From sequence record LN881738.1: a stretch of DNA of 41,318 nucleotides; one strand, written 5' to 3'. The notes beneath the pieces were generated by a model. That model saw only the letters and a program-made list of their open reading frames with translations, did not search any database and had not been told where the DNA came from. The translations under genes and the position numbers were made by a program. This DNA is from Clostridium phage slur17. Positions 2,679 through 15,805 of the stretch are shown here, piece by piece. Positions within the stretch are counted from its first letter, which is position 1. The number at the start of each line of letters is the position of its first letter.

Positions 2679-3007
2679 ATCATACTTAATGTGTTGCGCT
2701 TTTACATTAATATACCCACCTAGATTTTTTGATATATAATAAATTCTAAAAAGCTGGTCTTTGTAGTCGGGCGAAGTATCAGCTTTAATTAATCTATCTA
2801 CTTTTATTTCTTTAAATAAAAAAGAGTCTTCGTAGATAGTAAATTCTAACTCGAAAACTCCGCTTTCTTCCTCTCTAACATGGTCATTTATTACATTCGT
2901 AAGAACACCTAAACCTAAATGCCTAAAATCTGTTTCTTTTTCTTCATATAAAACTAATTTTCCTTTTTGAATAATTAATCCCTCCCTCCAAATTTTAATT
3001 TAAAACT

Positions 3008-3763
3008 TTATAAAATATTCCATCTAGGATTTATTTTTATGCTTTTTATATCCCCTTCCCAGCTAATCTGATTTTCTCCTTCTTCAAGTATGGGAAAGTC
3101 ACTAAAAAGCTTATTATTTTCATTTACAATAATGTTATTTTCTTTGTTTATTCTATATACATTCATCTGTTCGCTATCTATTATTAAGTCGCTTAAAATT
3201 CCATTTTCTGCCACCCCTCTTAGCACTATGCTTTGAGTATTTATTTTTATACTTATGTCCCCTGCTCCTTCTATATAGAGAACAGGTTTTGACTCTCTAT
3301 AGAAATTTGTTATAGTAGCACTCTTTAGATTTAATACATTTAAACTTATAATTTCTTCTTCTGCGTATCTAAAAGGGTAGCAGTCGAATGTTAAAAGACA
3401 TGATGCAAAGTTTTTAAAATTTCTAGTTATATCTAGTTTATTGTTACAGCTTGCTAGATAATAAAAGTCACTATTACTTAAAAAAAGTTTTTTATATGAT
3501 ATATCGCCCTGTAGCCATTTTTTTATTTCTGTTGCAACTTCTTCTATATTACTTTGTCTTGCATCTATATCGCATTCTATTGTAAGCGTAAAATTTTCAA
3601 AACCTTTTTTTAGTAGTAAATCTCCATCTTTGCCTGGCACACTCACTCTTTCAACTTCCATCTGTGGAGCTGATAAGTCGTTTATATTGTATATTTTTAA
3701 ACCAAATTCTCTGCTGTCTCGACCGTTATAAACGAAAAACATAGCTTTATGCCCTCCTCTCAT
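3008..3763 (-). CDS. Distal tail protein (Dit-like)
   Basis: 251-aa ORF directly downstream of the tape measure gene, the canonical Dit position in siphovirus tail modules; call by synteny only. Confidence 0.55.
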   Translation of the reverse strand: MRGGHKAMFFVYNGRDSREFGLKIYNINDLSAPQMEVERVSVPGKDGDLLLKKGFENFTLTIECDIDARQSNIEEVATEIKKWLQGDISYKKLFLSNSDFYYLASCNNKLDITRNFKNFASCLLTFDCYPFRYAEEEIISLNVLNLKSATITNFYRESKPVLYIEGAGDISIKINTQSIVLRGVAENGILSDLIIDSEQMNVYRINKENNIIVNENNKLFSDFPILEEGENQISWEGDIKSIKINPRWNIL

Positions 3764-3862: not shown

Positions 3863-6800
3863 TTATAAAGCTCCTTTTCTTTTTGCTAAGAACAATATTT
3901 CATCAAAAAGATTTTCTATATCTTGTTGTCTATTATTTACAAAGTTTTCTATATTAAGTTTAATACCTGCTTGATTTTCATTAGCTTCATCAGCCTTATT
4001 ATTACTCATTATAGCTGTTTCTTTTCCAGCTTTAAAATCTGTACTTGCAACTATATTAGCTTGTATTTTAGACGTTTCAAAATTAACTGTAGCTTTTAAT
4101 TTACCTGTAAGTTCAGATATATTTTTCTCTATTTTTTCTTTCAAGCCTGGCGTTTCTACATCTATTCCAACGCCGACCCCTTTTACAAGATTTCTACCAA
4201 TTAAATCTCGCATGATTATGGAAGGTGAATGCACTCCAAAGCCGTCTCTAAATCCATCTATAACATTACTAGCAAAATCAAGGACTTGGTCTTTTAACCA
4301 GCCACCCATGCCCGTTATACCTTCCCATAAGCCTCTTACAACATCTTTCCCGATACTCATAATTTTACTAGGCAAATCTTTCAAAGCATCCTTAACAGCA
4401 TTTGCCATATTTTTTCCAGCTTCTCCAGCTTGTTTGACTAAGTTAGTCCCCCAGCTTATGACATTTGAAATGATATTGTCTAGCCATTCTCTAAATTTTC
4501 CTGGAAGCTGGCTAACAGTATTGTATATATTGTTAAAAAAGTTTTTCGCTGTTTCTAAAGCTTTTTTAGATAAATTAACTTCCCACTCCATGACTTTTTG
4601 CATTATATTAGTTAATTTTTCCCATATTTTGCCCGGAAGTTCTGAAAAGAATTTCATTATATTTTCTAAGAATTTGCTTCCTGTTTCTAATGCTTTTTGA
4701 ATTAGATTAGAACCCCATTCCGAAACTTTTCCCATGATATCTGTAAACTTTTCCCATAATTTTCCCGGAAGCTCCGAAATTGGAATTAATACATTGTCAA
4801 CAAATTGATTAAAAATATCTGTTGCCAATTGCTTTAAATTTTCGCCCCAGCCACTTATTGTTTCTACTACTGTATTAAACCATTCCGAAATTCTTTCGGG
4901 TAGCTCTGTAAAAAACTGTGTTATATTTTCCCAAATTGCACCAAAAAACTCTGAAACAGAAACCTTGAAATTTTCGCCCCAAGTTTGAATATTTTGCAAT
5001 ATGATACTAAAAAATTCCGAAATTTTTTCCGGAAGGCTTACAAACCATTCGACAATGCTATTTATTATTTCTGGTAATGTTTCTGTTGCCCAGGCGTACA
5101 GATTAGCTCCTAAATCAACGAAAAAACCAGCAATAGACCCGATTACAAAACCAATATTATATGGAATTTGTTTAAACCATTCGACAATATTATTTATTAT
5201 AGCTGGCATTGTCTCATTAAAGAAACTTGATATTTTTTCTCCTATTTTCCCACATTCTTCTTTTATCTTGTCGCCAATACCCGCAAACCATTTTGGTACT
5301 GTGCTAGTAAAAAAGTCTAAACCACTTTTTAATCCGCTTCCAATTGCATCTCCAATTTTTGACCCAGTCTCTTTGAACCAATTGCTAAGACCGCCGAAAA
5401 TCTCTACAGCTTTATCTTTTATACTTGAAAAACCTTGCTGTGCCTTATCTCCAAACTCTGTAAAAAAGTCTCCAGCTCCTGCAAATCCTTCACTTATTTT
5501 ATTTCCAAGACCACCAAAAAATCCACCTATATTTTCAATTCCTTCTTTGAATTTATCTTTTACTTTAGAGAAGAAATCACCAATAGAATTTTTTGCACTA
5601 GCTAGCCACTCATTTATATTTTTGTCTGTATCTCTTAGCCATTTTTCTATTCCACCAAAAAAACCACCAATGCCATTGAACCCTTTTTTTATACTTTCAG
5701 ATAATTTACTAGCTGAATCCCCAACTTTAGGGACTGTTCCTGTTACGAGTTCATCACTGACAAGTTCTAAGCCTTCAACAGAAGTTTTAACATCATCTAT
5801 GCCATCAGCATATTCTTCTAGTTCTCCAGCGTCCAGTTTGGCAGAACCAGAATCCAAAGAGGAACTTTTAGCAGATGAGTCTACATCCCCTCCACTTGCG
5901 CTAGAAGTATTAGCTTTTTCTTTTAGTTTCTCATATTCTTCTAACTTTTTCTTCAATCTATCAAGCTCTTTTTCTTGTGCTGGTATAATCTCTTTTAAGT
6001 TAATAGCTTCCTTTACAGCTTCCTGGATAGATTGCTTTTTAGAGTTAACTCCATTTAACAAACTATCTGCTAAACTCTGCCCTGCATCCTGCCAATGCGG
6101 GTTATATTCACTTAAAAGTTTTATAATTTCTTCTGAATTTTTTTGTAAAAGTAGCCTTCTCGCTTCATTTTGAATATTTGTCTCTTCTAAAAGTTCACTA
6201 AAATATTTTTCAATTTCTTCTTTTTGACTAGCATTAGACTCTTTTATCAATTCAAGTTTTTTACTTTCTGCTTCTTTTTGATTGTCGTACTCTTCTTTGT
6301 ACTGCTCTTTTTTGTTACTAGCTTCTGTTTTTATATTTTCAATCTGTTCTTTTAATCTGTTTTTTTCTTGTTGCCTTTGTTCATCTAATAATTTCTTCTG
6401 TCTATCTGATTGTGCTTCTGATATTTCTTTTTGTATTTTTTCTCGTTCTTTTTGATTTTTAGCTGTTGCTAGTTTCCTGTCAAGGTCGCTTATTTTTTCA
6501 TTGTACGCTTTCTCTTCTTCTGCTTTTTGTTCTTCTTCAATTTGCTTGTCTATGGCGTCAATTTGTTCTTGTATAGCATTAGTTTTCTCATTTGTTTCTG
6601 TATCTAAATACTTTAATTTCTCATTGTATTCTTTTTCATAGACCTTTAATCTATCATTTGATGCCTTTTCCTCAACTTTTAGTCTTTCATCAAGCGCTTT
6701 TATTTGTATATCTTTTTGACTTTCATATTGATTTTTTAATGCTGTAGTTATAGCCTCGCAAATTTTTTCAAATTTACTCTTGTTGGTCTCAAGATTTTTT

Positions 6801-9166
6801 TCCATAGCACTTATTAATTCTTTTGTTGCCTCTACTACATCTTTGCTTGTATTTTTTATACCATTAGCAAATCCAATGCCTGCAAATTCTCCAAGTTCTG
6901 TTGTAACTTTAGACGGTGAATGTATTCTTAGTACTTTTTTAAATGTATTAACTACAGTTAAACCGATATTTTTTACAGTATCTACAACCAAACCGATACC
7001 GCTCGAAAGCCCATTTATTATCCCAGCTATTATGTTTTTTCCAAAGGTAACAAAGCCTTTTACAACACTAGAAAAGAAACTAAAAACCTTATTTTTAAAA
7101 CTTACACAACTATTATAAATAGCTTTAAATCCATTTACAAAAGGGCTTAATAACATACTTCCTATACTTTTCCAGTTATTTTTAATAAAACTTAAAACAT
7201 TTTTAAAGATGCCTACAATTTTGTTAAATATAGAATTTACAGTGTTTCTAAAACCTTCACAATTATCGTAAATTAATTTAAATGCTCCAATGAACGGATT
7301 TACTAAAATTAATAATAAGCCTTGCCAGTTACTCTTAATAAAAGACATTGTTTTGCTTAAAGCATCTTTAATGCTGTTAAATAATTTATTTATAGTATTT
7401 CTAAAACCTTCGCAATTATCATAGATTAATTTAAAACCACCAATGAAGGGATTAACAAGTAATAGAGCCAATCCTTGCCAATTTTCTTTTGCAAAGTCTA
7501 TAAATTTACTCATAGCTTGCGGTATTGTTTCAGTAAAGAATTTAGCAATTTGACCGAATATTTTCTCCCCAACTTCTTTAATATTATTCCAAATATTTAT
7601 AACGGCATCTCTGAAACCCTCATTGTTTTTCCAGAGCGATACGAATCCCGCAATCAAAGCCCCTACTGCTACTATAGTTAAACCAATCGGACCACCAAGC
7701 GCCGTTAATGCACCCTTCCACAAATTAGTTGCTACTTGCGCTAAACTTATTTTTTTTGTAACTAATCCAACTATAGTTTCATACAGCGTTAACGTAGTTC
7801 CTGATTCTGCCATCCCTGTGACGAACAGCCTTACAGCAAGTTGCGCATCTGTAAAGCTTTTTTGTATACCCCTTACAATTCCAGCAATTTTTAATCCAGC
7901 GAAAGCAACTCCAATCCCTGTTATCAAAGGAGCTACAAGGCTACCATGCTGAATCAAGAAGGTTATAACATTGATTAAAGGGGTTAATGCTAAAGATATT
8001 AACTTTACAACTGTTCCAATTAACGCACCAATGCTTTCTGCTGTACTTCTTATAGCATTTTTTGTATTTTCGTTTTGAAAAGCCTTAGCAAATTTATTTG
8101 CCAAATCATTTAAAACAGGAAGCAATCCCTCTGCAATTGGAAGAAGTAAATTAACCTGCATTTGCCTTCCAATTCCTGTTATCGCTTCTCCGAAACTATT
8201 GTATTTTATCTTATTAATTTCTTCTAATTTATCTTTTGAACTGCTTATACTTCCTTCGATATTTGTTAGCGCTGTTACTGCATCCGCTTCCAAATCCTCA
8301 AACTTAGTACCAAAGAGTTGTACACCTATCTGATTTTTTAATACATTATCATCTAAATTATTTAAAGCCGTTGTAACCTCAACAAAAGCCTCTTTTGCAC
8401 TACTTCCACCATTTGCAAATTTCTTAGTTAGTTCGTCAGCATTAAAACCGAGCGCCTCAAAAGCTTCCTTAGTTCCATTCGAACCGTCTTTAGCCCTAAT
8501 ATTAAATTCTTTCAAAGCGTCATTTAGATAGTCTATTTGATAGACTCCACTCTCTGCCCCGTTTTTCATCATATTAAACATTTCTTCTGCTGAAAAACCC
8601 ATCTGTGCGTAATATGTCGAATATTCTGCTAACTGGTCTCCGAGGTCATCATTCTGATTTAATCCTTGTTGTGCTCCCTGTGCAATCAAGTTGTACGACT
8701 CTTTTGCGCTAATACCAAATTGGCGCATCATGGAGTTTACGCCATTTAAACTTTCCCCAACATCCATGTCGAAAGTATCCCGCATCATAATCGCACTTTC
8801 AGTAACTTCTTGAATATTGCTAGCGTCTATCCCATCAAGCTTTTGAGATATTAAACTCATAACTTCGCTTATATCGCCCATGTCCTCGCCAAAATTATTT
8901 GCATAGACCTGCTGTAGCGCTTCTCCAAAGCCTTTTGCCTTAGCTTCCGCATTTCCCGTTGCTGACTCGAAACCATTCATTGCCTTTTGGTATTCATCCC
9001 CAAAGTCAATAGCCTGTTTTCCTATAGCTCCCAGACTTGCGCCAATTCCAGCTATCGCAAGAGCGCTTTTTGCTTTCTTCTTCATAGTATCAGCTAAGTT
9101 ATTAAGTTGTTTCTCTGCATCTTCGGTATTTAAAAGGGTATCTATAATAATAGAACCATCTGCCAT
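3863..9166 (-). CDS. Tail tape measure protein
   Basis: 1767-aa protein with N-terminal helical region, long Glu/Lys-rich coiled coil, several hydrophobic segments and multiple internal tandem repeats (IYDNCEGFRNT units; W..E....LPGK units); lies between tail chaperones and Dit. Confidence 0.9.
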   Translation of the reverse strand: MADGSIIIDTLLNTEDAEKQLNNLADTMKKKAKSALAIAGIGASLGAIGKQAIDFGDEYQKAMNGFESATGNAEAKAKGFGEALQQVYANNFGEDMGDISEVMSLISQKLDGIDASNIQEVTESAIMMRDTFDMDVGESLNGVNSMMRQFGISAKESYNLIAQGAQQGLNQNDDLGDQLAEYSTYYAQMGFSAEEMFNMMKNGAESGVYQIDYLNDALKEFNIRAKDGSNGTKEAFEALGFNADELTKKFANGGSSAKEAFVEVTTALNNLDDNVLKNQIGVQLFGTKFEDLEADAVTALTNIEGSISSSKDKLEEINKIKYNSFGEAITGIGRQMQVNLLLPIAEGLLPVLNDLANKFAKAFQNENTKNAIRSTAESIGALIGTVVKLISLALTPLINVITFLIQHGSLVAPLITGIGVAFAGLKIAGIVRGIQKSFTDAQLAVRLFVTGMAESGTTLTLYETIVGLVTKKISLAQVATNLWKGALTALGGPIGLTIVAVGALIAGFVSLWKNNEGFRDAVINIWNNIKEVGEKIFGQIAKFFTETIPQAMSKFIDFAKENWQGLALLLVNPFIGGFKLIYDNCEGFRNTINKLFNSIKDALSKTMSFIKSNWQGLLLILVNPFIGAFKLIYDNCEGFRNTVNSIFNKIVGIFKNVLSFIKNNWKSIGSMLLSPFVNGFKAIYNSCVSFKNKVFSFFSSVVKGFVTFGKNIIAGIINGLSSGIGLVVDTVKNIGLTVVNTFKKVLRIHSPSKVTTELGEFAGIGFANGIKNTSKDVVEATKELISAMEKNLETNKSKFEKICEAITTALKNQYESQKDIQIKALDERLKVEEKASNDRLKVYEKEYNEKLKYLDTETNEKTNAIQEQIDAIDKQIEEEQKAEEEKAYNEKISDLDRKLATAKNQKEREKIQKEISEAQSDRQKKLLDEQRQQEKNRLKEQIENIKTEASNKKEQYKEEYDNQKEAESKKLELIKESNASQKEEIEKYFSELLEETNIQNEARRLLLQKNSEEIIKLLSEYNPHWQDAGQSLADSLLNGVNSKKQSIQEAVKEAINLKEIIPAQEKELDRLKKKLEEYEKLKEKANTSSASGGDVDSSAKSSSLDSGSAKLDAGELEEYADGIDDVKTSVEGLELVSDELVTGTVPKVGDSASKLSESIKKGFNGIGGFFGGIEKWLRDTDKNINEWLASAKNSIGDFFSKVKDKFKEGIENIGGFFGGLGNKISEGFAGAGDFFTEFGDKAQQGFSSIKDKAVEIFGGLSNWFKETGSKIGDAIGSGLKSGLDFFTSTVPKWFAGIGDKIKEECGKIGEKISSFFNETMPAIINNIVEWFKQIPYNIGFVIGSIAGFFVDLGANLYAWATETLPEIINSIVEWFVSLPEKISEFFSIILQNIQTWGENFKVSVSEFFGAIWENITQFFTELPERISEWFNTVVETISGWGENLKQLATDIFNQFVDNVLIPISELPGKLWEKFTDIMGKVSEWGSNLIQKALETGSKFLENIMKFFSELPGKIWEKLTNIMQKVMEWEVNLSKKALETAKNFFNNIYNTVSQLPGKFREWLDNIISNVISWGTNLVKQAGEAGKNMANAVKDALKDLPSKIMSIGKDVVRGLWEGITGMGGWLKDQVLDFASNVIDGFRDGFGVHSPSIIMRDLIGRNLVKGVGVGIDVETPGLKEKIEKNISELTGKLKATVNFETSKIQANIVASTDFKAGKETAIMSNNKADEANENQAGIKLNIENFVNNRQQDIENLFDEILFLAKRKGAL

Positions 9167-9196
9167 TTATTCACCCCCTTTTTATAAATTTGCATT

Positions 9197-9235
9197 AAAA
9201 AAGCACCTACTTTTTAAAAAAGTAAGTGCTTTTTA
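9197..9235 (-). terminator. Intrinsic terminator-like hairpin between DUF4236-like gene and tape measure gene
   Basis: 10-bp stem (9202-9211 / 9221-9230, one C-A mismatch), 9-nt loop, A-run 9197-9201 and T-run 9231-9235, so it could act in either direction. Confidence 0.45.
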
Positions 9236-9271
9236 TTTAAATCTTCTACTATATTTTTCTCTTTACAAATA

Positions 9272-9913
9272 TTAATCTTGTTTTTTAACATCATTTAATA
9301 GTTGTTTATATAGCCTATTAAGCTTAGTTTTATTATCATTATTTAAATGCTCTTTATAATCTATTGCTAAACTAGAGAATTTATAAGCATTGTTCATGCG
9401 AGCCTTTTCAGTTTTTAGTTCTTTCAATTTACTAGACATTTCATTGTAGTATCTAGTCAAAAAGTCATTTATAGTATCAGTCTTTTTTGCTATTATGCTG
9501 TCTAGCATCTGGCTAGGAGATTGACCAGAAAAGTTTAAGTTATCCTCTATGGCAACTAAGGCATATGATTTATCTAACAACATATTATATCTATAAAAAA
9601 ATGTTTTAGGGTCTTTTGTAGTATTAACTATATTAGCACAATCGTTTATTATTTTTAATAGCTGTTGAGCCTGCCTACTACTCTCCGAGCCTCCTGCACT
9701 CTTACCATTTTTCTTTTTACCTCCACCTAGTTGAGTTGTTTCTTGATAATATAAGCCACTTCCAGGAACTCCCAAAGTCGTCGTAGCTTTCCCTTTAGAA
9801 TTAACTGAAACTCTAGCACCTTTAACGCCACCGCTAACACTAACACTATTTTTATTAATATTTAACTTCAATCCACCGCCTAGATTTATGCTTTTTCTAA
9901 ATTTAAATCCCAT
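9272..9913 (-). CDS. DUF4236-like protein, probable moron inserted in the tail module
   Basis: N-terminus MGFKFRKSINLGGGLKLNINKNSVSVSGGVKGARVSVNSKG matches the Gly-rich repeat pattern I recall for DUF4236; followed by Gly/Lys-rich linker and helical C-terminus; has its own downstream hairpin. Confidence 0.5.
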   Translation of the reverse strand: MGFKFRKSINLGGGLKLNINKNSVSVSGGVKGARVSVNSKGKATTTLGVPGSGLYYQETTQLGGGKKKNGKSAGGSESSRQAQQLLKIINDCANIVNTTKDPKTFFYRYNMLLDKSYALVAIEDNLNFSGQSPSQMLDSIIAKKTDTINDFLTRYYNEMSSKLKELKTEKARMNNAYKFSSLAIDYKEHLNNDNKTKLNRLYKQLLNDVKKQD

Positions 9914-9984
9914 AACAATCCCCCCAAATTAAAATATTTATATAATAATTATATATTAATTCGGAAGGTGTAGAGTATATTATT

Positions 9985-10593
9985 TTATAATAAATTACTA
10001 ATATCTCCACCATTTAGCAAAGCTCTTTCAATTTCATTTATTTTCTCAACCTCATTTTTAGGAAGTGGTATAGCATGTATTTTTTTCATTTTCCTATAAA
10101 AATCTTTTTGCGCTTTTGGCATATCTCCACTTATATCCATTGCCCTGTAACCCATAATTTTAACTATCTCAGTATCTTCTTTCAAGGATTTAAATAGCGC
10201 TTTAAATTTCCACCAGTGTAATTTTTCTATGTCTTGCAAGTCAATCCCATATTGCCCTAGAAAAGCGGAATATATATACTCGTCGTCATGGTCATACGAA
10301 TATATTTGCCCCTTACTAGAACCACCCGCACCACTTTGACAACTATCATTAATATCATTTTCTTTTTTCCCGCACGAATAAAACCATATAATTTTATCTA
10401 TAGCCACCGTAGTATTTATAGGTATTACAGGGTAATATAAAGAAAGTGCATTTTTCCCTTTTTCCTCGTCACTTATAGAATCATCTTGTATCAACATTTC
10501 AAACAGAATTGATATTCTAAAATCTGTATTAATTTTATATTCTTCCCCATCAATTTCAACGTTTTCGGGAAGTACATCTATTAACATATTCAT
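9985..10593 (-). CDS. Tail assembly chaperone (Gp15-like)
   Basis: 202-aa acidic protein between major tail protein and tape measure; overlaps the upstream chaperone gene by 1 nt, as usual for the chaperone pair. Confidence 0.5.
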   Translation of the reverse strand: MNMLIDVLPENVEIDGEEYKINTDFRISILFEMLIQDDSISDEEKGKNALSLYYPVIPINTTVAIDKIIWFYSCGKKENDINDSCQSGAGGSSKGQIYSYDHDDEYIYSAFLGQYGIDLQDIEKLHWWKFKALFKSLKEDTEIVKIMGYRAMDISGDMPKAQKDFYRKMKKIHAIPLPKNEVEKINEIERALLNGGDISNLL

Positions 10594-10955
10594 TATTTTT
10601 TAGCTCTACGTTGCGCTCGGTTTGGCGTATACTTTGATACAGCTGAGGCGAAAAATTCTTCCCCCTCTTGTTTCTGTCTATTAACTTCTTCTATTAATTC
10701 AAAAAAAGCATTTGAGCATACCTTTAAATTTCTCTTATCTCCAAACATTTTATTTGATGTGCCTTCCCCGAAAATATCGTCAAAGCATTTAAAAATTAAA
10801 TTACATATATCTCTAATCATTTCATAACCTTTGGTTGCCTCTTTCTCAACTTTTCCCGTTTCAGTAATAGTCAAGCCTATTGTTTTTTCAATGTTTTCAT
10901 ATTCATCAGCATCATATATATCAAAATCTTTTAATTCTATATTATTAATTAACAT
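10593..10955 (-). CDS. Tail assembly chaperone
   Basis: 120-aa acidic protein immediately downstream of the major tail protein gene; synteny. Confidence 0.5.
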   Translation of the reverse strand: MLINNIELKDFDIYDADEYENIEKTIGLTITETGKVEKEATKGYEMIRDICNLIFKCFDDIFGEGTSNKMFGDKRNLKVCSNAFFELIEEVNRQKQEGEEFFASAVSKYTPNRAQRRAKK

Positions 10956-11012: not shown

Positions 11013-11813
11013 CTACTCTTTTACTGTAACAGTAGCTATTCCTGCCTTTTTCGCTTTATTGCCCGAATTAACCTCTACTATCAATATTTTATCCCCTTCA
11101 TTTGCTGTTATATCCTCAGTACCATCCCAAGTAGTATATCCAACTGAACAATCAGCATCTAATGCTGGAACTGAAACACTTGCCCCAGTCTTATATTTAT
11201 AACTATTTCCACTTTCAAGACCTGGAGTAACGGTTACTTTTGTATCCCCTGTGTTAGTACCCGCAATTGAATTTACAGTTAAAATCTTTAAACTTTCAGC
11301 TGGTGGTGCTTCTTCCCCAACCTCCGTGAAAATCTTTGTCTGAGTGTTAAATTCTCCATCTACAAAATTACCAACGCTATTTAAGTTCCCGCTGACAATA
11401 ATTGTTTCTCCTCCTGCTCCTGCAAGCCCAGAGACTTCAACTGACACTCTAAATTTTCTAGCCTTAAAAGTATTATCTTTTCCTTCAACTGGTAAAAATA
11501 ATTCTACTCTTAAATAATCTCTTTCAGCATCTGCGCCAGTTGCCTGGTCTCTACCTATCTTATAAAGTTCCATTATAGCCTTTTCGCTTTTAATTAAATC
11601 CGACTCAAACGGGAATTGTGTTTGGTAAGATTTTATAGCACTAGTACTGTTTCTATCGTTTATATATGTTTTAGAGTCACTTTGCGCGGATGGGTTCTCG
11701 TCTAATGTATTAAATCCTGCCCCCATCAACTCCCAAGAATTTTGTCCATCGTCTCCTAAAATTCCTAAATAATCCGCAATTTTATATCTTTGTATCGTTT
11801 CTATTCCTGCCAT
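11013..11813 (-). CDS. Major tail protein
   Basis: 266-aa protein between the head-tail joining genes and the chaperones; Thr/Gly/Val-rich C-terminal part consistent with an Ig-like decoration domain. Confidence 0.6.
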   Translation of the reverse strand: MAGIETIQRYKIADYLGILGDDGQNSWELMGAGFNTLDENPSAQSDSKTYINDRNSTSAIKSYQTQFPFESDLIKSEKAIMELYKIGRDQATGADAERDYLRVELFLPVEGKDNTFKARKFRVSVEVSGLAGAGGETIIVSGNLNSVGNFVDGEFNTQTKIFTEVGEEAPPAESLKILTVNSIAGTNTGDTKVTVTPGLESGNSYKYKTGASVSVPALDADCSVGYTTWDGTEDITANEGDKILIVEVNSGNKAKKAGIATVTVKE

Positions 11814-15026: not shown

Positions 15027-15157
15027 AAAAACCTCCTGTTTTCATTTACAATTACGCTTTTTTACGTGGTAGCATCACATATTGTCTAACTTTTTACGTC
15101 GCTTAGTAGACATCTATATAAATGAATTAAGTATTTTAAGCATAAAAATAAGTCTTA

Positions 15158-15439
15158 TTAATATAAGACTTCCTCATATGTTTCTCTAAATATATCAGCC
15201 TTGCATGGATATAGTTCTCCTTTTATCCCTTGAATAATGTAATCACCTACATTAGCCTCGTGTATACCTTCAAGCGTCTTTATATACATGCGTGGAGATA
15301 ATTCCCCTAGACTCTGTTCAATCCAAACATTGCCACTCTCAATAGCCTTAACTATCCATATTGGTTCTTCCTTTTGTTCTATACTTCCTAGCCATTTAAA
15401 AGCTTCAACAGTAACTGGCTTCTTTCTATATTTCCCCAT
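15158..15439 (-). CDS. Hypothetical protein (moron in head module)
   Basis: 93-aa ORF (MGKYRKKPVTVEAFKW...) between minor head protein and scaffold genes; a 9-bp-stem hairpin (about 15141-15165) overlaps its stop codon. Confidence 0.45.
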   Translation of the reverse strand: MGKYRKKPVTVEAFKWLGSIEQKEEPIWIVKAIESGNVWIEQSLGELSPRMYIKTLEGIHEANVGDYIIQGIKGELYPCKADIFRETYEEVLY

Positions 15440-15454
15440 TTAAAGCACTCCTTT

Positions 15455-15805
15455 TTATAAAGCATCTAATTCCATAAATACTTTTAGCATTTTAGGAAAC
15501 TGTATCGCAAAATAGTCAACCATTTCCTCGTTTCTAGCCCAATCGCTATTACTCTTTAACCCGCTTTCAGATAAAAAAGCATGTATAACTTCATGTCTAA
15601 GAACTTGTTTTTCATAAAAGTTCAAATCCTCTAAACTTTCATCTGAATGCTCCATTTTAGCGATTATAATCTTGTTTACAGTATCATCCATAAAACCATC
15701 AAATTTAACCATTAAAGGCTCTTTTTCTTTGGTACAATTTTTCAATATAGTATATTTAGTCCCTAATATTTCAACATCCATTTTATTTCTCCTTTTTGCC
15801 AGCAT
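15455..15805 (-). CDS. Small HExxH-motif protein (putative Zn metallopeptidase-like)
   Basis: 116 aa containing RHEVIHAF, a HExxH zinc-binding signature; overlaps the 3' end of the minor head protein gene. Confidence 0.45.
   Translation of the reverse strand: MLAKRRNKMDVEILGTKYTILKNCTKEKEPLMVKFDGFMDDTVNKIIIAKMEHSDESLEDLNFYEKQVLRHEVIHAFLSESGLKSNSDWARNEEMVDYFAIQFPKMLKVFMELDAL

Follow-up and report, generated by a model that had tools for sequence, protein, structure and literature searches.

Why does a gene for a 213-residue protein lie between the Gp15-type tail gene and the tail tape measure gene of Clostridium phage slur17? The window examined here is the whole 41,318-nucleotide stretch of this phage (record LN881738.1; one strand, 5' to 3'), and an earlier note, made from its letters alone, had described positions 9170-9913 as a DUF4236-like moron with its own terminator, unrelated to tail assembly, that interrupts the order from tail chaperones to tape measure. 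The coordinates and the description that it gave are accurate. Comparison of this junction across phages indicates that the gene is very probably the cargo of an accessory cassette: the position is closed in phages of other genera with homologous flanking genes, and is filled by unrelated genes in other clostridial phages. The slot and the two genes that bound it contain the following features.

9272..9913, stop codon included, minus strand: coding sequence of the 213-residue accessory protein, from the open reading frame (ORF) list and present as a coding sequence in the GenBank and RefSeq records
9920..9925, minus strand: Shine-Dalgarno sequence GGGGGG, 6 nt 5' of the ATG, seen in the sequence and kept with small changes in relatives
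9948..9953, minus strand: perfect TATAAT (−10-like box), 34 nt upstream of the ATG, from the alignment of close phages
9197..9234, minus strand: intrinsic-terminator-type hairpin, with an A-tract at 9230-9234, a GC core at 9222-9229 paired with 9203-9210, and a U6 tract at 9197-9202
3863..9166, minus strand: tail tape measure protein (TMP) gene, 1767 residues, from the ORF and the annotation in CDHS1 and phiCD38-2; ribosome-binding site at 9172-9178
9985-10593, minus strand: Phage_Gp15 gene, from Pfam

The ORF at 9272..9913 is CDHS1_16 (gene 16), the equivalent of phiCD38-2 gp15. A 2.2-kb stretch around it is 100% identical to Clostridium phage CDSH1/CDHS1 (KU057941) and 88-96% identical to phiCD111, phiCD146, phiCD38-2 and AR1075-1, all of the genus Leicestervirus. 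A homology search bears out the assignment to DUF4236: residues 3-56 match Pfam family PF14020 over model positions 1-54 of 55 with an E-value of 1.1e-19 and a score of 71.1 bits, well above the gathering cut-off of 27. The whole protein matches PHROG phrog_7974 (E 4e-143), and full-length homologues recovered in searches are confined to C. difficile elements. The reading frame is unbroken in all records and is under purifying selection, with ratios of nonsynonymous to synonymous substitution rates (dN/dS) of 0.07-0.17 among four phages, compared with 0.05-0.07 for the neighbouring Gp15 gene; this is a real gene under constraint. An NCBIfam scan gave no significant match, a profile search of PDB sequences yielded nothing beyond a marginal match to a hypothetical protein (E 0.003), a BFVD search returned only uncharacterised homologues, and fold searches with the protein model gave only generic matches. 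No tail family in Pfam, PHROGs or NCBIfam matches the protein. A literature search on DUF4236 was essentially empty, with a single incidental mention, and the family has no assigned function.

The Gp15 and TMP genes directly adjoin each other in four Gp15-bearing phages from outside the clostridia, with gaps of 10 nt in Listeria phage A118, 3 nt in Lactobacillus phage JNU_P7, and 14 nt in both Streptococcus Javan554 and Blautia Montmirail. Apart from the divergent Leicestervirus Hain-Saunders-2022a, in which, as in locus L050, the slot holds a DUF4236-only gene of 67-73 residues, all Leicestervirus records found have the 213-residue gene: 8 from phages, 3 from C. difficile plasmids, 7 IMG/VR loci and 1 genome contig. 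In five elements, from C. sporogenes and from phages and plasmids of C. perfringens, the occupant belongs to a family of ~170 residues with a central glycine-zipper segment, and in C. estertheticum pCM034-48 it is a predicted lipoprotein of 183 residues, with a signal peptide and the lipobox SFAGC (2883-3434 of locus L018, minus strand). The direct junction in other genera and the varied clostridial cargo together indicate that the 213-residue gene separates two genes that ancestrally adjoined each other, and that tails of this type do not have it as a conserved component; such a tail can dispense with it, since unrelated genes take its place in sister clostridial phages. Nor does it qualify as a tail assembly chaperone or structural tail gene, the position being empty or otherwise filled in phages with homologous Gp15 and TMP genes.

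The interruption described in the earlier note is confirmed, and its view that the gene is unrelated to tail assembly has support. The check that it proposed, whether related phages lack the gene at this position, comes out in its favour only at greater distance and against it within Leicestervirus. The name moron fits in the sense that extra DNA is present here and absent from the same junction in related phages (PMC3594210), and in that a terminator-type hairpin follows the gene. It does not fit as to base composition: the gene has a GC content of 0.312 and a third-position GC content (GC3) of 0.229, its neighbours 0.30-0.37 and 0.22-0.25, and the window a GC content of 0.308, so that one classical trait of morons is missing.

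The hairpin has a 17-bp stem (9198-9234) with the GC core GCACTTAC / GTAGGTGC, and ends 30 nt before the TMP ATG. A 121-nt fold reaches −22.2 kcal/mol (z = −3.57), and none of 200 shuffled sequences folds as well. A consensus terminator scan gave 0 sites, but only because pairing between the flanking A- and T-runs uses up the T-run for which it scans; Rfam gave only sub-threshold chance matches to mir-302. The stem is invariant in close phages, and the same element (GCACTTAC...GTAGGTGC and variants) stands behind the DUF4236, glycine-zipper and lipoprotein genes. In an alignment of eight such hairpins all 95 pair cells are standard pairs, and 6 of the 12 pairs are changed on both sides; 0/500 shuffles reach this level, and when the register is slid no more than 59% of cells pair. 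The hairpin and T-run reported just upstream of the TMP start are thus corroborated, down to covariation in distant relatives. The claim that the gene has its own terminator survives only in part: the element is of terminator type, but because homologous hairpins follow three unrelated types of cargo, it belongs to the slot and not to the 213-residue gene, and the predicted terminator is a slot property common to all cargo types. Being symmetric, the hairpin could in principle act in both directions. Since the TMP gene starts 30 nt past it and is strongly expressed in infection, late transcription must read through it, and the hairpin may also tune TMP levels.

In three relatives the interval from the slot terminator to the TMP gene also contains a small ORF for a Com-like zinc-ribbon protein (motif CPxCNQLL...KCxRCK): LPCPA58 (5240-5372), C. 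estertheticum pCM034-48 (about 2690-2830, minus strand) and C. perfringens pCP-OS1-2. It is followed by a second hairpin, the 5' arm of which pairs with the TMP ribosome-binding site. This arrangement is absent from the window; it suggests that in those relatives the tape measure may be under translational control in the style of Mu Com/mom.

On the other side of the cargo, the TATAAT box is invariant in five close phages and lies upstream of the cargo in 7 of 9 slot-bearing relatives. By shuffling, the chance expectation is 8-23% per relative, for a combined P of about 1e-5 under an assumption of independence that is not fully true. In Hain-Saunders, C. sporogenes and C. estertheticum a TTGTAA or TTGTAG overlaps the Gp15 stop codon 17-18 nt upstream of TATAAT, and in these three the pair makes a respectable predicted sigma-A promoter. 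As the TATAAT box and the hairpin flank unrelated cargoes, both belong to the slot rather than to the 213-residue gene, for which an independent promoter is suggested only. A conserved ACTCTACA upstream of TATAAT was considered as a recurring phage promoter motif and rejected, as the window is not enriched for it (44 matches against 32 +/- 5 expected, only 2 of them exact). In a Clostridioides sp. GD02377 contig (3826-3885) the spacer between the Gp15 and DUF4236 genes is longer by ~108 nt and contains three ATTGTAA(A/G) repeats beside TATAAT-like boxes; these repeats, which do not occur in the window, could be an operator or a duplicated promoter.

The protein encoded in the slot has three parts.

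9728..9913, minus strand: N-terminal DUF4236 module, residues 1-62; predicted six-strand antiparallel beta-meander with amphipathic strands
9680..9727, minus strand: low-complexity linker rich in Gly and Lys, residues 63-78; seen in the sequence and in the lowest model confidence
9275..9679, minus strand: C-terminal six-helix domain, residues 79-213; high-confidence model, of a family with no Pfam name

The AlphaFold2 model has a mean predicted local distance difference test score (pLDDT) of 87, with values above 90 in the C-terminal domain and the lowest in the linker. The beta-meander spans residues 7-61 of the model, and the DUF4236 module is strongly basic (nine K+R against one D+E, isoelectric point 10.5), its strands alternating hydrophobic and polar residues. 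The nonsynonymous rate (dN) of the linker is the highest of the three parts of the gene in comparison with phiCD38-2, though not with phiCD146. The C-terminal domain has no match in Pfam, NCBIfam or PADLOC, and its family is widespread (549 representative clusters at E <= 1e-3); its members stand alone or are fused to TM2, DnaQ-type exonuclease, SAP, zinc-ribbon, TPR, MuF/minor-capsid or restriction-endonuclease-like regions. Further architectures include two copies before a MuF-like C-terminus, a position behind a DnaQ-type exonuclease, and one before a conserved Cys-rich domain (P0069, 684 residues; P0105, 452 residues; P0049; P0051). This variety hints that the domain may serve as a modular adaptor. 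DUF4236, for its part, stands at the N-terminus in relatives, ahead of C-terminal regions of many kinds and mostly followed by one to three transmembrane helices, which take the place of the linker in the window protein. Its combination with the helical domain is a minority architecture (16 of 196 proteins compared), which is also seen in distant relatives that have no transmembrane helix, or two, between the modules; both modules would therefore be on one side of the membrane, presumably the cytoplasmic one.

Gram-positive temperate phages keep lysogen-expressed genes, ltp and sie2009 among them, in the interval between repressor and integrase, and it is there, or beside one of the two, that relatives of the DUF4236 module are mostly found. 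An IMG/VR scan with the module gave 49 loci, of which 40 have a callable ORF outside the Gp15-to-TMP slot. The order cI-like repressor, DUF4236, integrase, all co-oriented, occurs in 14 of the 40; another 13 adjoin a repressor only and 5 an integrase only. The DUF4236 gene thus lies beside a repressor and/or an integrase in at least 32 of the 40 viral loci, a lower bound because the marker panel was crude, although the 40 loci fall into a few related groups and are not 40 independent events. Among annotated phages, FP_Epona, Roseburia phage Shimadzu and Ruminococcus phage RG-TP1 have the repressor on one side of their DUF4236 gene and the integrase on the other. In S. pyogenes prophage 315.5, the one prophage inspected in this respect, the C-domain gene lies between cI and int, and the two-module relatives P0191 and P0122 adjoin integrases.

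Two other settings of the module were observed. A DUF4236-only mini-gene, 65% identical to the N-terminus of the window protein, occurs in 113-132-kb Clostridioides phage-plasmids (ES-S-0173-01, 4974-5204; L013), so that the module moves between contexts; in ES-S-0173-01, the one inspected, it lies among genes for predicted secreted or membrane-anchored proteins, far from any tail genes. Klebsiella phage RCIP0034 shows a moron-like arrangement in a phage of a Gram-negative host: a lone 105-residue DUF4236 gene (3001-3318) lies reversed among neighbours that run on the other strand.

From the lysogeny-operon setting of DUF4236 and of the C-terminal domain we propose that the protein is expressed by the prophage, held at the membrane and protective. 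A cassette consisting of a −10 box, a ribosome-binding site, a cargo gene and a terminator hairpin was inserted between the Gp15-type chaperone gene and the TMP gene in the line of descent of the clostridial siphophages and phage-plasmids that have DUF6673 and Gp15. The cargo has been swapped several times, and the 213-residue gene, encoding a basic two-module protein with no transmembrane helix, is very probably the one now carried by C. difficile Leicesterviruses. The protein would be made at low level from the episomal prophage, probably from a weak sigma-A-type promoter of its own, with additional read-through in the late phase; whether the gene is expressed in lysogens at all we judge to be about evenly balanced. 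DUF4236 would hold the protein at the inner face of the cell membrane, where, on the analogy of HK97 gp15, it would shield the lysogen: incoming phages would be stopped by superinfection exclusion or in a manner like abortive infection. By analogy with such systems an exclusion or defence function is possible, but we regard it as doubtful. Taken as a whole, from cassette cargo to protection, this is the reading that we prefer, with slightly less than even confidence.

The nearest precedent, taken here as the functional model, is gene 15 of HK97, the first element to be called a moron, which occupies the same position as the 213-residue gene; it is an extra gene that related phages lack, with expression signals of its own on either side (PMC3594210). 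The likeness is positional only: homologue searches returned only DUF4236 or C-domain proteins, and none related to HK97 gp15 or YebO. HK97 gp15, which is YebO-related, is small and inserts into the inner membrane, whereas the protein described here has 213 residues, two modules and no transmembrane segment; HK97 is a lambdoid phage of a Gram-negative host and the present phage is clostridial. A further difference is that the composition of the 213-residue gene is not anomalous. Prophage expression and exclusion have been demonstrated for HK97 gp15, and for the 213-residue protein are proposed by analogy.

Exclusion proteins of Gram-positive phages are membrane-associated blockers of DNA injection, and one of them, Ltp, has been linked to the tape measure protein (PMC4737114). 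The genes for Ltp (S. thermophilus phage TP-J34) and Sie2009 (L. lactis phage Tuc2009) belong to lysogeny modules, as do relatives of both modules here, whereas the 213-residue gene itself is in the tail operon. The window protein has no homology to Ltp or Sie2009 and lacks a signal peptide, lipobox and transmembrane helix. It also differs from most phage members of PF14020, which carry transmembrane helices and other C-terminal regions. The C. estertheticum slot occupant is, like Ltp, a lipoprotein, and its type recalls Ltp as an exclusion lipoprotein that targets tape measure proteins.

Fixed sites at which variable cargo is exchanged between conserved flanks are familiar in temperate phages and their satellites as the hot spots of P2 and P4. 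The Gp15-TMP slot resembles these in having conserved flanking signals around unrelated cargo. It differs in lying inside the tail morphogenesis operon of clostridial phage-plasmids and in that each cargo is one small gene, and the window protein, the only cargo scanned with PADLOC, matches no known defence system. More speculatively, the junction may be a dedicated site of cassette exchange, with the −10 box and hairpin doubling as expression signals and recombination anchors, and with cargoes that are envelope-directed exclusion proteins and strike competing phages at their tape measure or injection machinery; we consider this extended version unlikely.

Several observations weigh against prophage-expressed, membrane-held protection. 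The gene shares its strand with the late operon, and transcription of the TMP gene has to pass the hairpin, so that late co-transcription is likely at least in part. In the phiCD38-2 group an insertion of ~14 nt displaces the TTGTAA/TTGTAG element, leaving a poor −35 region in this phage, and a general promoter scan does not rise above background. The anomaly of GC or GC3 that was looked for, against both neighbours and window, was not found, and the best hit in a PADLOC-DB v2 scan of the protein (E 0.035 over 34 residues) is not significant. The protein has no transmembrane segment (maximum 19-residue hydropathy 0.55) and no signal peptide, unlike known exclusion proteins, and in some phages the C-terminal domain is fused to MuF/minor-capsid proteins. 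Finally, no empty slot was seen among the Clostridium and Clostridioides relatives examined, so that the occupant could matter for the lytic cycle.

Much of this would be expected if the protein were instead a late-expressed helper of the lytic cycle, co-transcribed with the tail operon and acting in assembly or infection, for instance as a factor associated with TMP or with injection, or as an ejected anti-defence protein. The hairpin would then serve as an attenuator or messenger-stability element and fix the ratio of TMP to the upstream tail proteins, rather than end a separate transcription unit. Besides the shared strand, ordinary composition, MuF/minor-capsid fusions and strong expression of TMP in spite of the hairpin, this explanation can call on the presence of the gene in all Leicestervirus records and of some occupant throughout the clostridial clade, on the single 100%-identical block that the gene forms with TMP in CDHS1 and phiCD111, and on the Com-like ORF with its hairpin covering the ribosome-binding site in some relatives, which suggests that TMP is regulated in this region. 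The cargoes, however, are mutually unrelated and the slot is absent from the four other Gp15 phages, so no single assembly function is conserved, and DUF4236 is found overwhelmingly in lysogeny modules, as is the C-domain in prophage 315.5. Expression data bear on the same point: CDHS1_00016 is absent from all lists of the top 20 up-regulated genes during lytic infection, in which genes 13, 14, 15, 17 and 18 appear (PMC8619979, supplement). As that supplement gives only the 20 most up-regulated genes per time point, the absence of gene 16 is weak evidence, compatible with its being regulated differently from its listed neighbours. On balance we think a late helper rather unlikely.

Lysogenic conversion is a further reading, in which the protein alters host physiology rather than phage resistance, for example by contributing to the changes in toxin expression or in cwpV phase variation that phiCD38-2 causes. 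This phage raises transcription of the toxin locus PaLoc and turns cwpV ON in about 95% of lysogen cells by mechanisms that are unexplained (PMC6127314), effects that, with the cassette-type accessory location, speak for such a factor. Another phage gene, ptrX, explains the toxin and motility effects of a phiCD38-2-like prophage (bioRxiv 10.1101/2023.08.24.554564), though, the 213-residue protein has no DNA-binding or enzymatic signature, and the literature search ties DUF4236 to no such phenotype, all of which makes conversion improbable. A selfish or decaying remnant that no longer serves a function would be in line with the lack of matches in curated defence or naming libraries; it is hardly credible given a dN/dS of 0.07-0.17, similar to that of the Gp15 gene, an intact frame in every record and a confident AlphaFold2 model.

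The structural genes around the slot are on the minus strand in the order major tail protein, DUF6673, Phage_Gp15, the 213-residue ORF and TMP, and two of them lie upstream of the genes listed above.

11013-11813, minus strand: major tail protein gene
10593-10955, minus strand: DUF6673 gene, from Pfam

The DUF6673 and Gp15 genes (9985..10955) hold the two positions of the tail assembly chaperone genes in phage A118, where ORF14, annotated as a tail assembly chaperone, is followed by Gp15. DUF6673 has no significant similarity to A118 gp14, and its label as a chaperone accordingly depends on position alone. Its gene has diverged strongly from that of phiCD38-2 (10593-10955 in the window, 7798-8160 in phiCD38-2), with a dN of 0.33 and 48-78% nucleotide identity, while the flanking genes are about 90% identical. 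Sharp mosaicism is also seen between CDHS1 and phiCD111 (window 9870-10600): the Gp15 genes are only 78-90% identical, with a synonymous rate (dS) of about 0.67, whereas identity is 99-100% both upstream, in the DUF6673 gene, and downstream, in the DUF4236-TMP block, indicating a recent recombinational replacement of Gp15 alone.

Residues 184-263, at the C-terminus of the major tail protein, match the C-terminal domain of the S-layer protein SbsC (E 2e-13), which is possibly relevant in that the receptor of these phages is the S-layer protein SlpA. Between the MuF-like minor capsid and scaffold genes (15027-15805) there are two small ORFs of 93 and 116 residues (CDHS1_6 and CDHS1_5) and a 131-nt gap before the scaffold gene; phiCD38-2 has only one annotated gene there, and this is possibly another variable accessory spot.

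As a kind of finding the gene is already known, since the DUF4236 annotation exists and there is a textbook example of a moron in this place. The slot with its exchanged cargo and covarying terminator, the strong association of DUF4236 with lysogeny modules, and the large unnamed family of the C-terminal domain appear to be new. The slot with swapped cargo is a compact example of accessory-gene exchange inside an essential operon. If the product were an ordinary late protein the locus would be of local interest only. If the gene is a prophage-expressed exclusion or defence gene, it would give a function to DUF4236 and to the unnamed helical-domain family of 549 clusters in the lysogeny operons of gut Firmicute phages; and if the junction is a dedicated site of exchange for exclusion cargo, DUF4236 with the helical domain would define a family of exclusion or abortive-infection proteins of prophages that is new and is widespread in the lysogeny modules of Firmicutes. 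The phiCD38-2-like phages are episomal prophages of epidemic C. difficile that alter toxin production and phage resistance, and CDHS1 is under development for therapy; a gene of this kind, expressed from the prophage, would affect which therapeutic phages can infect lysogens.

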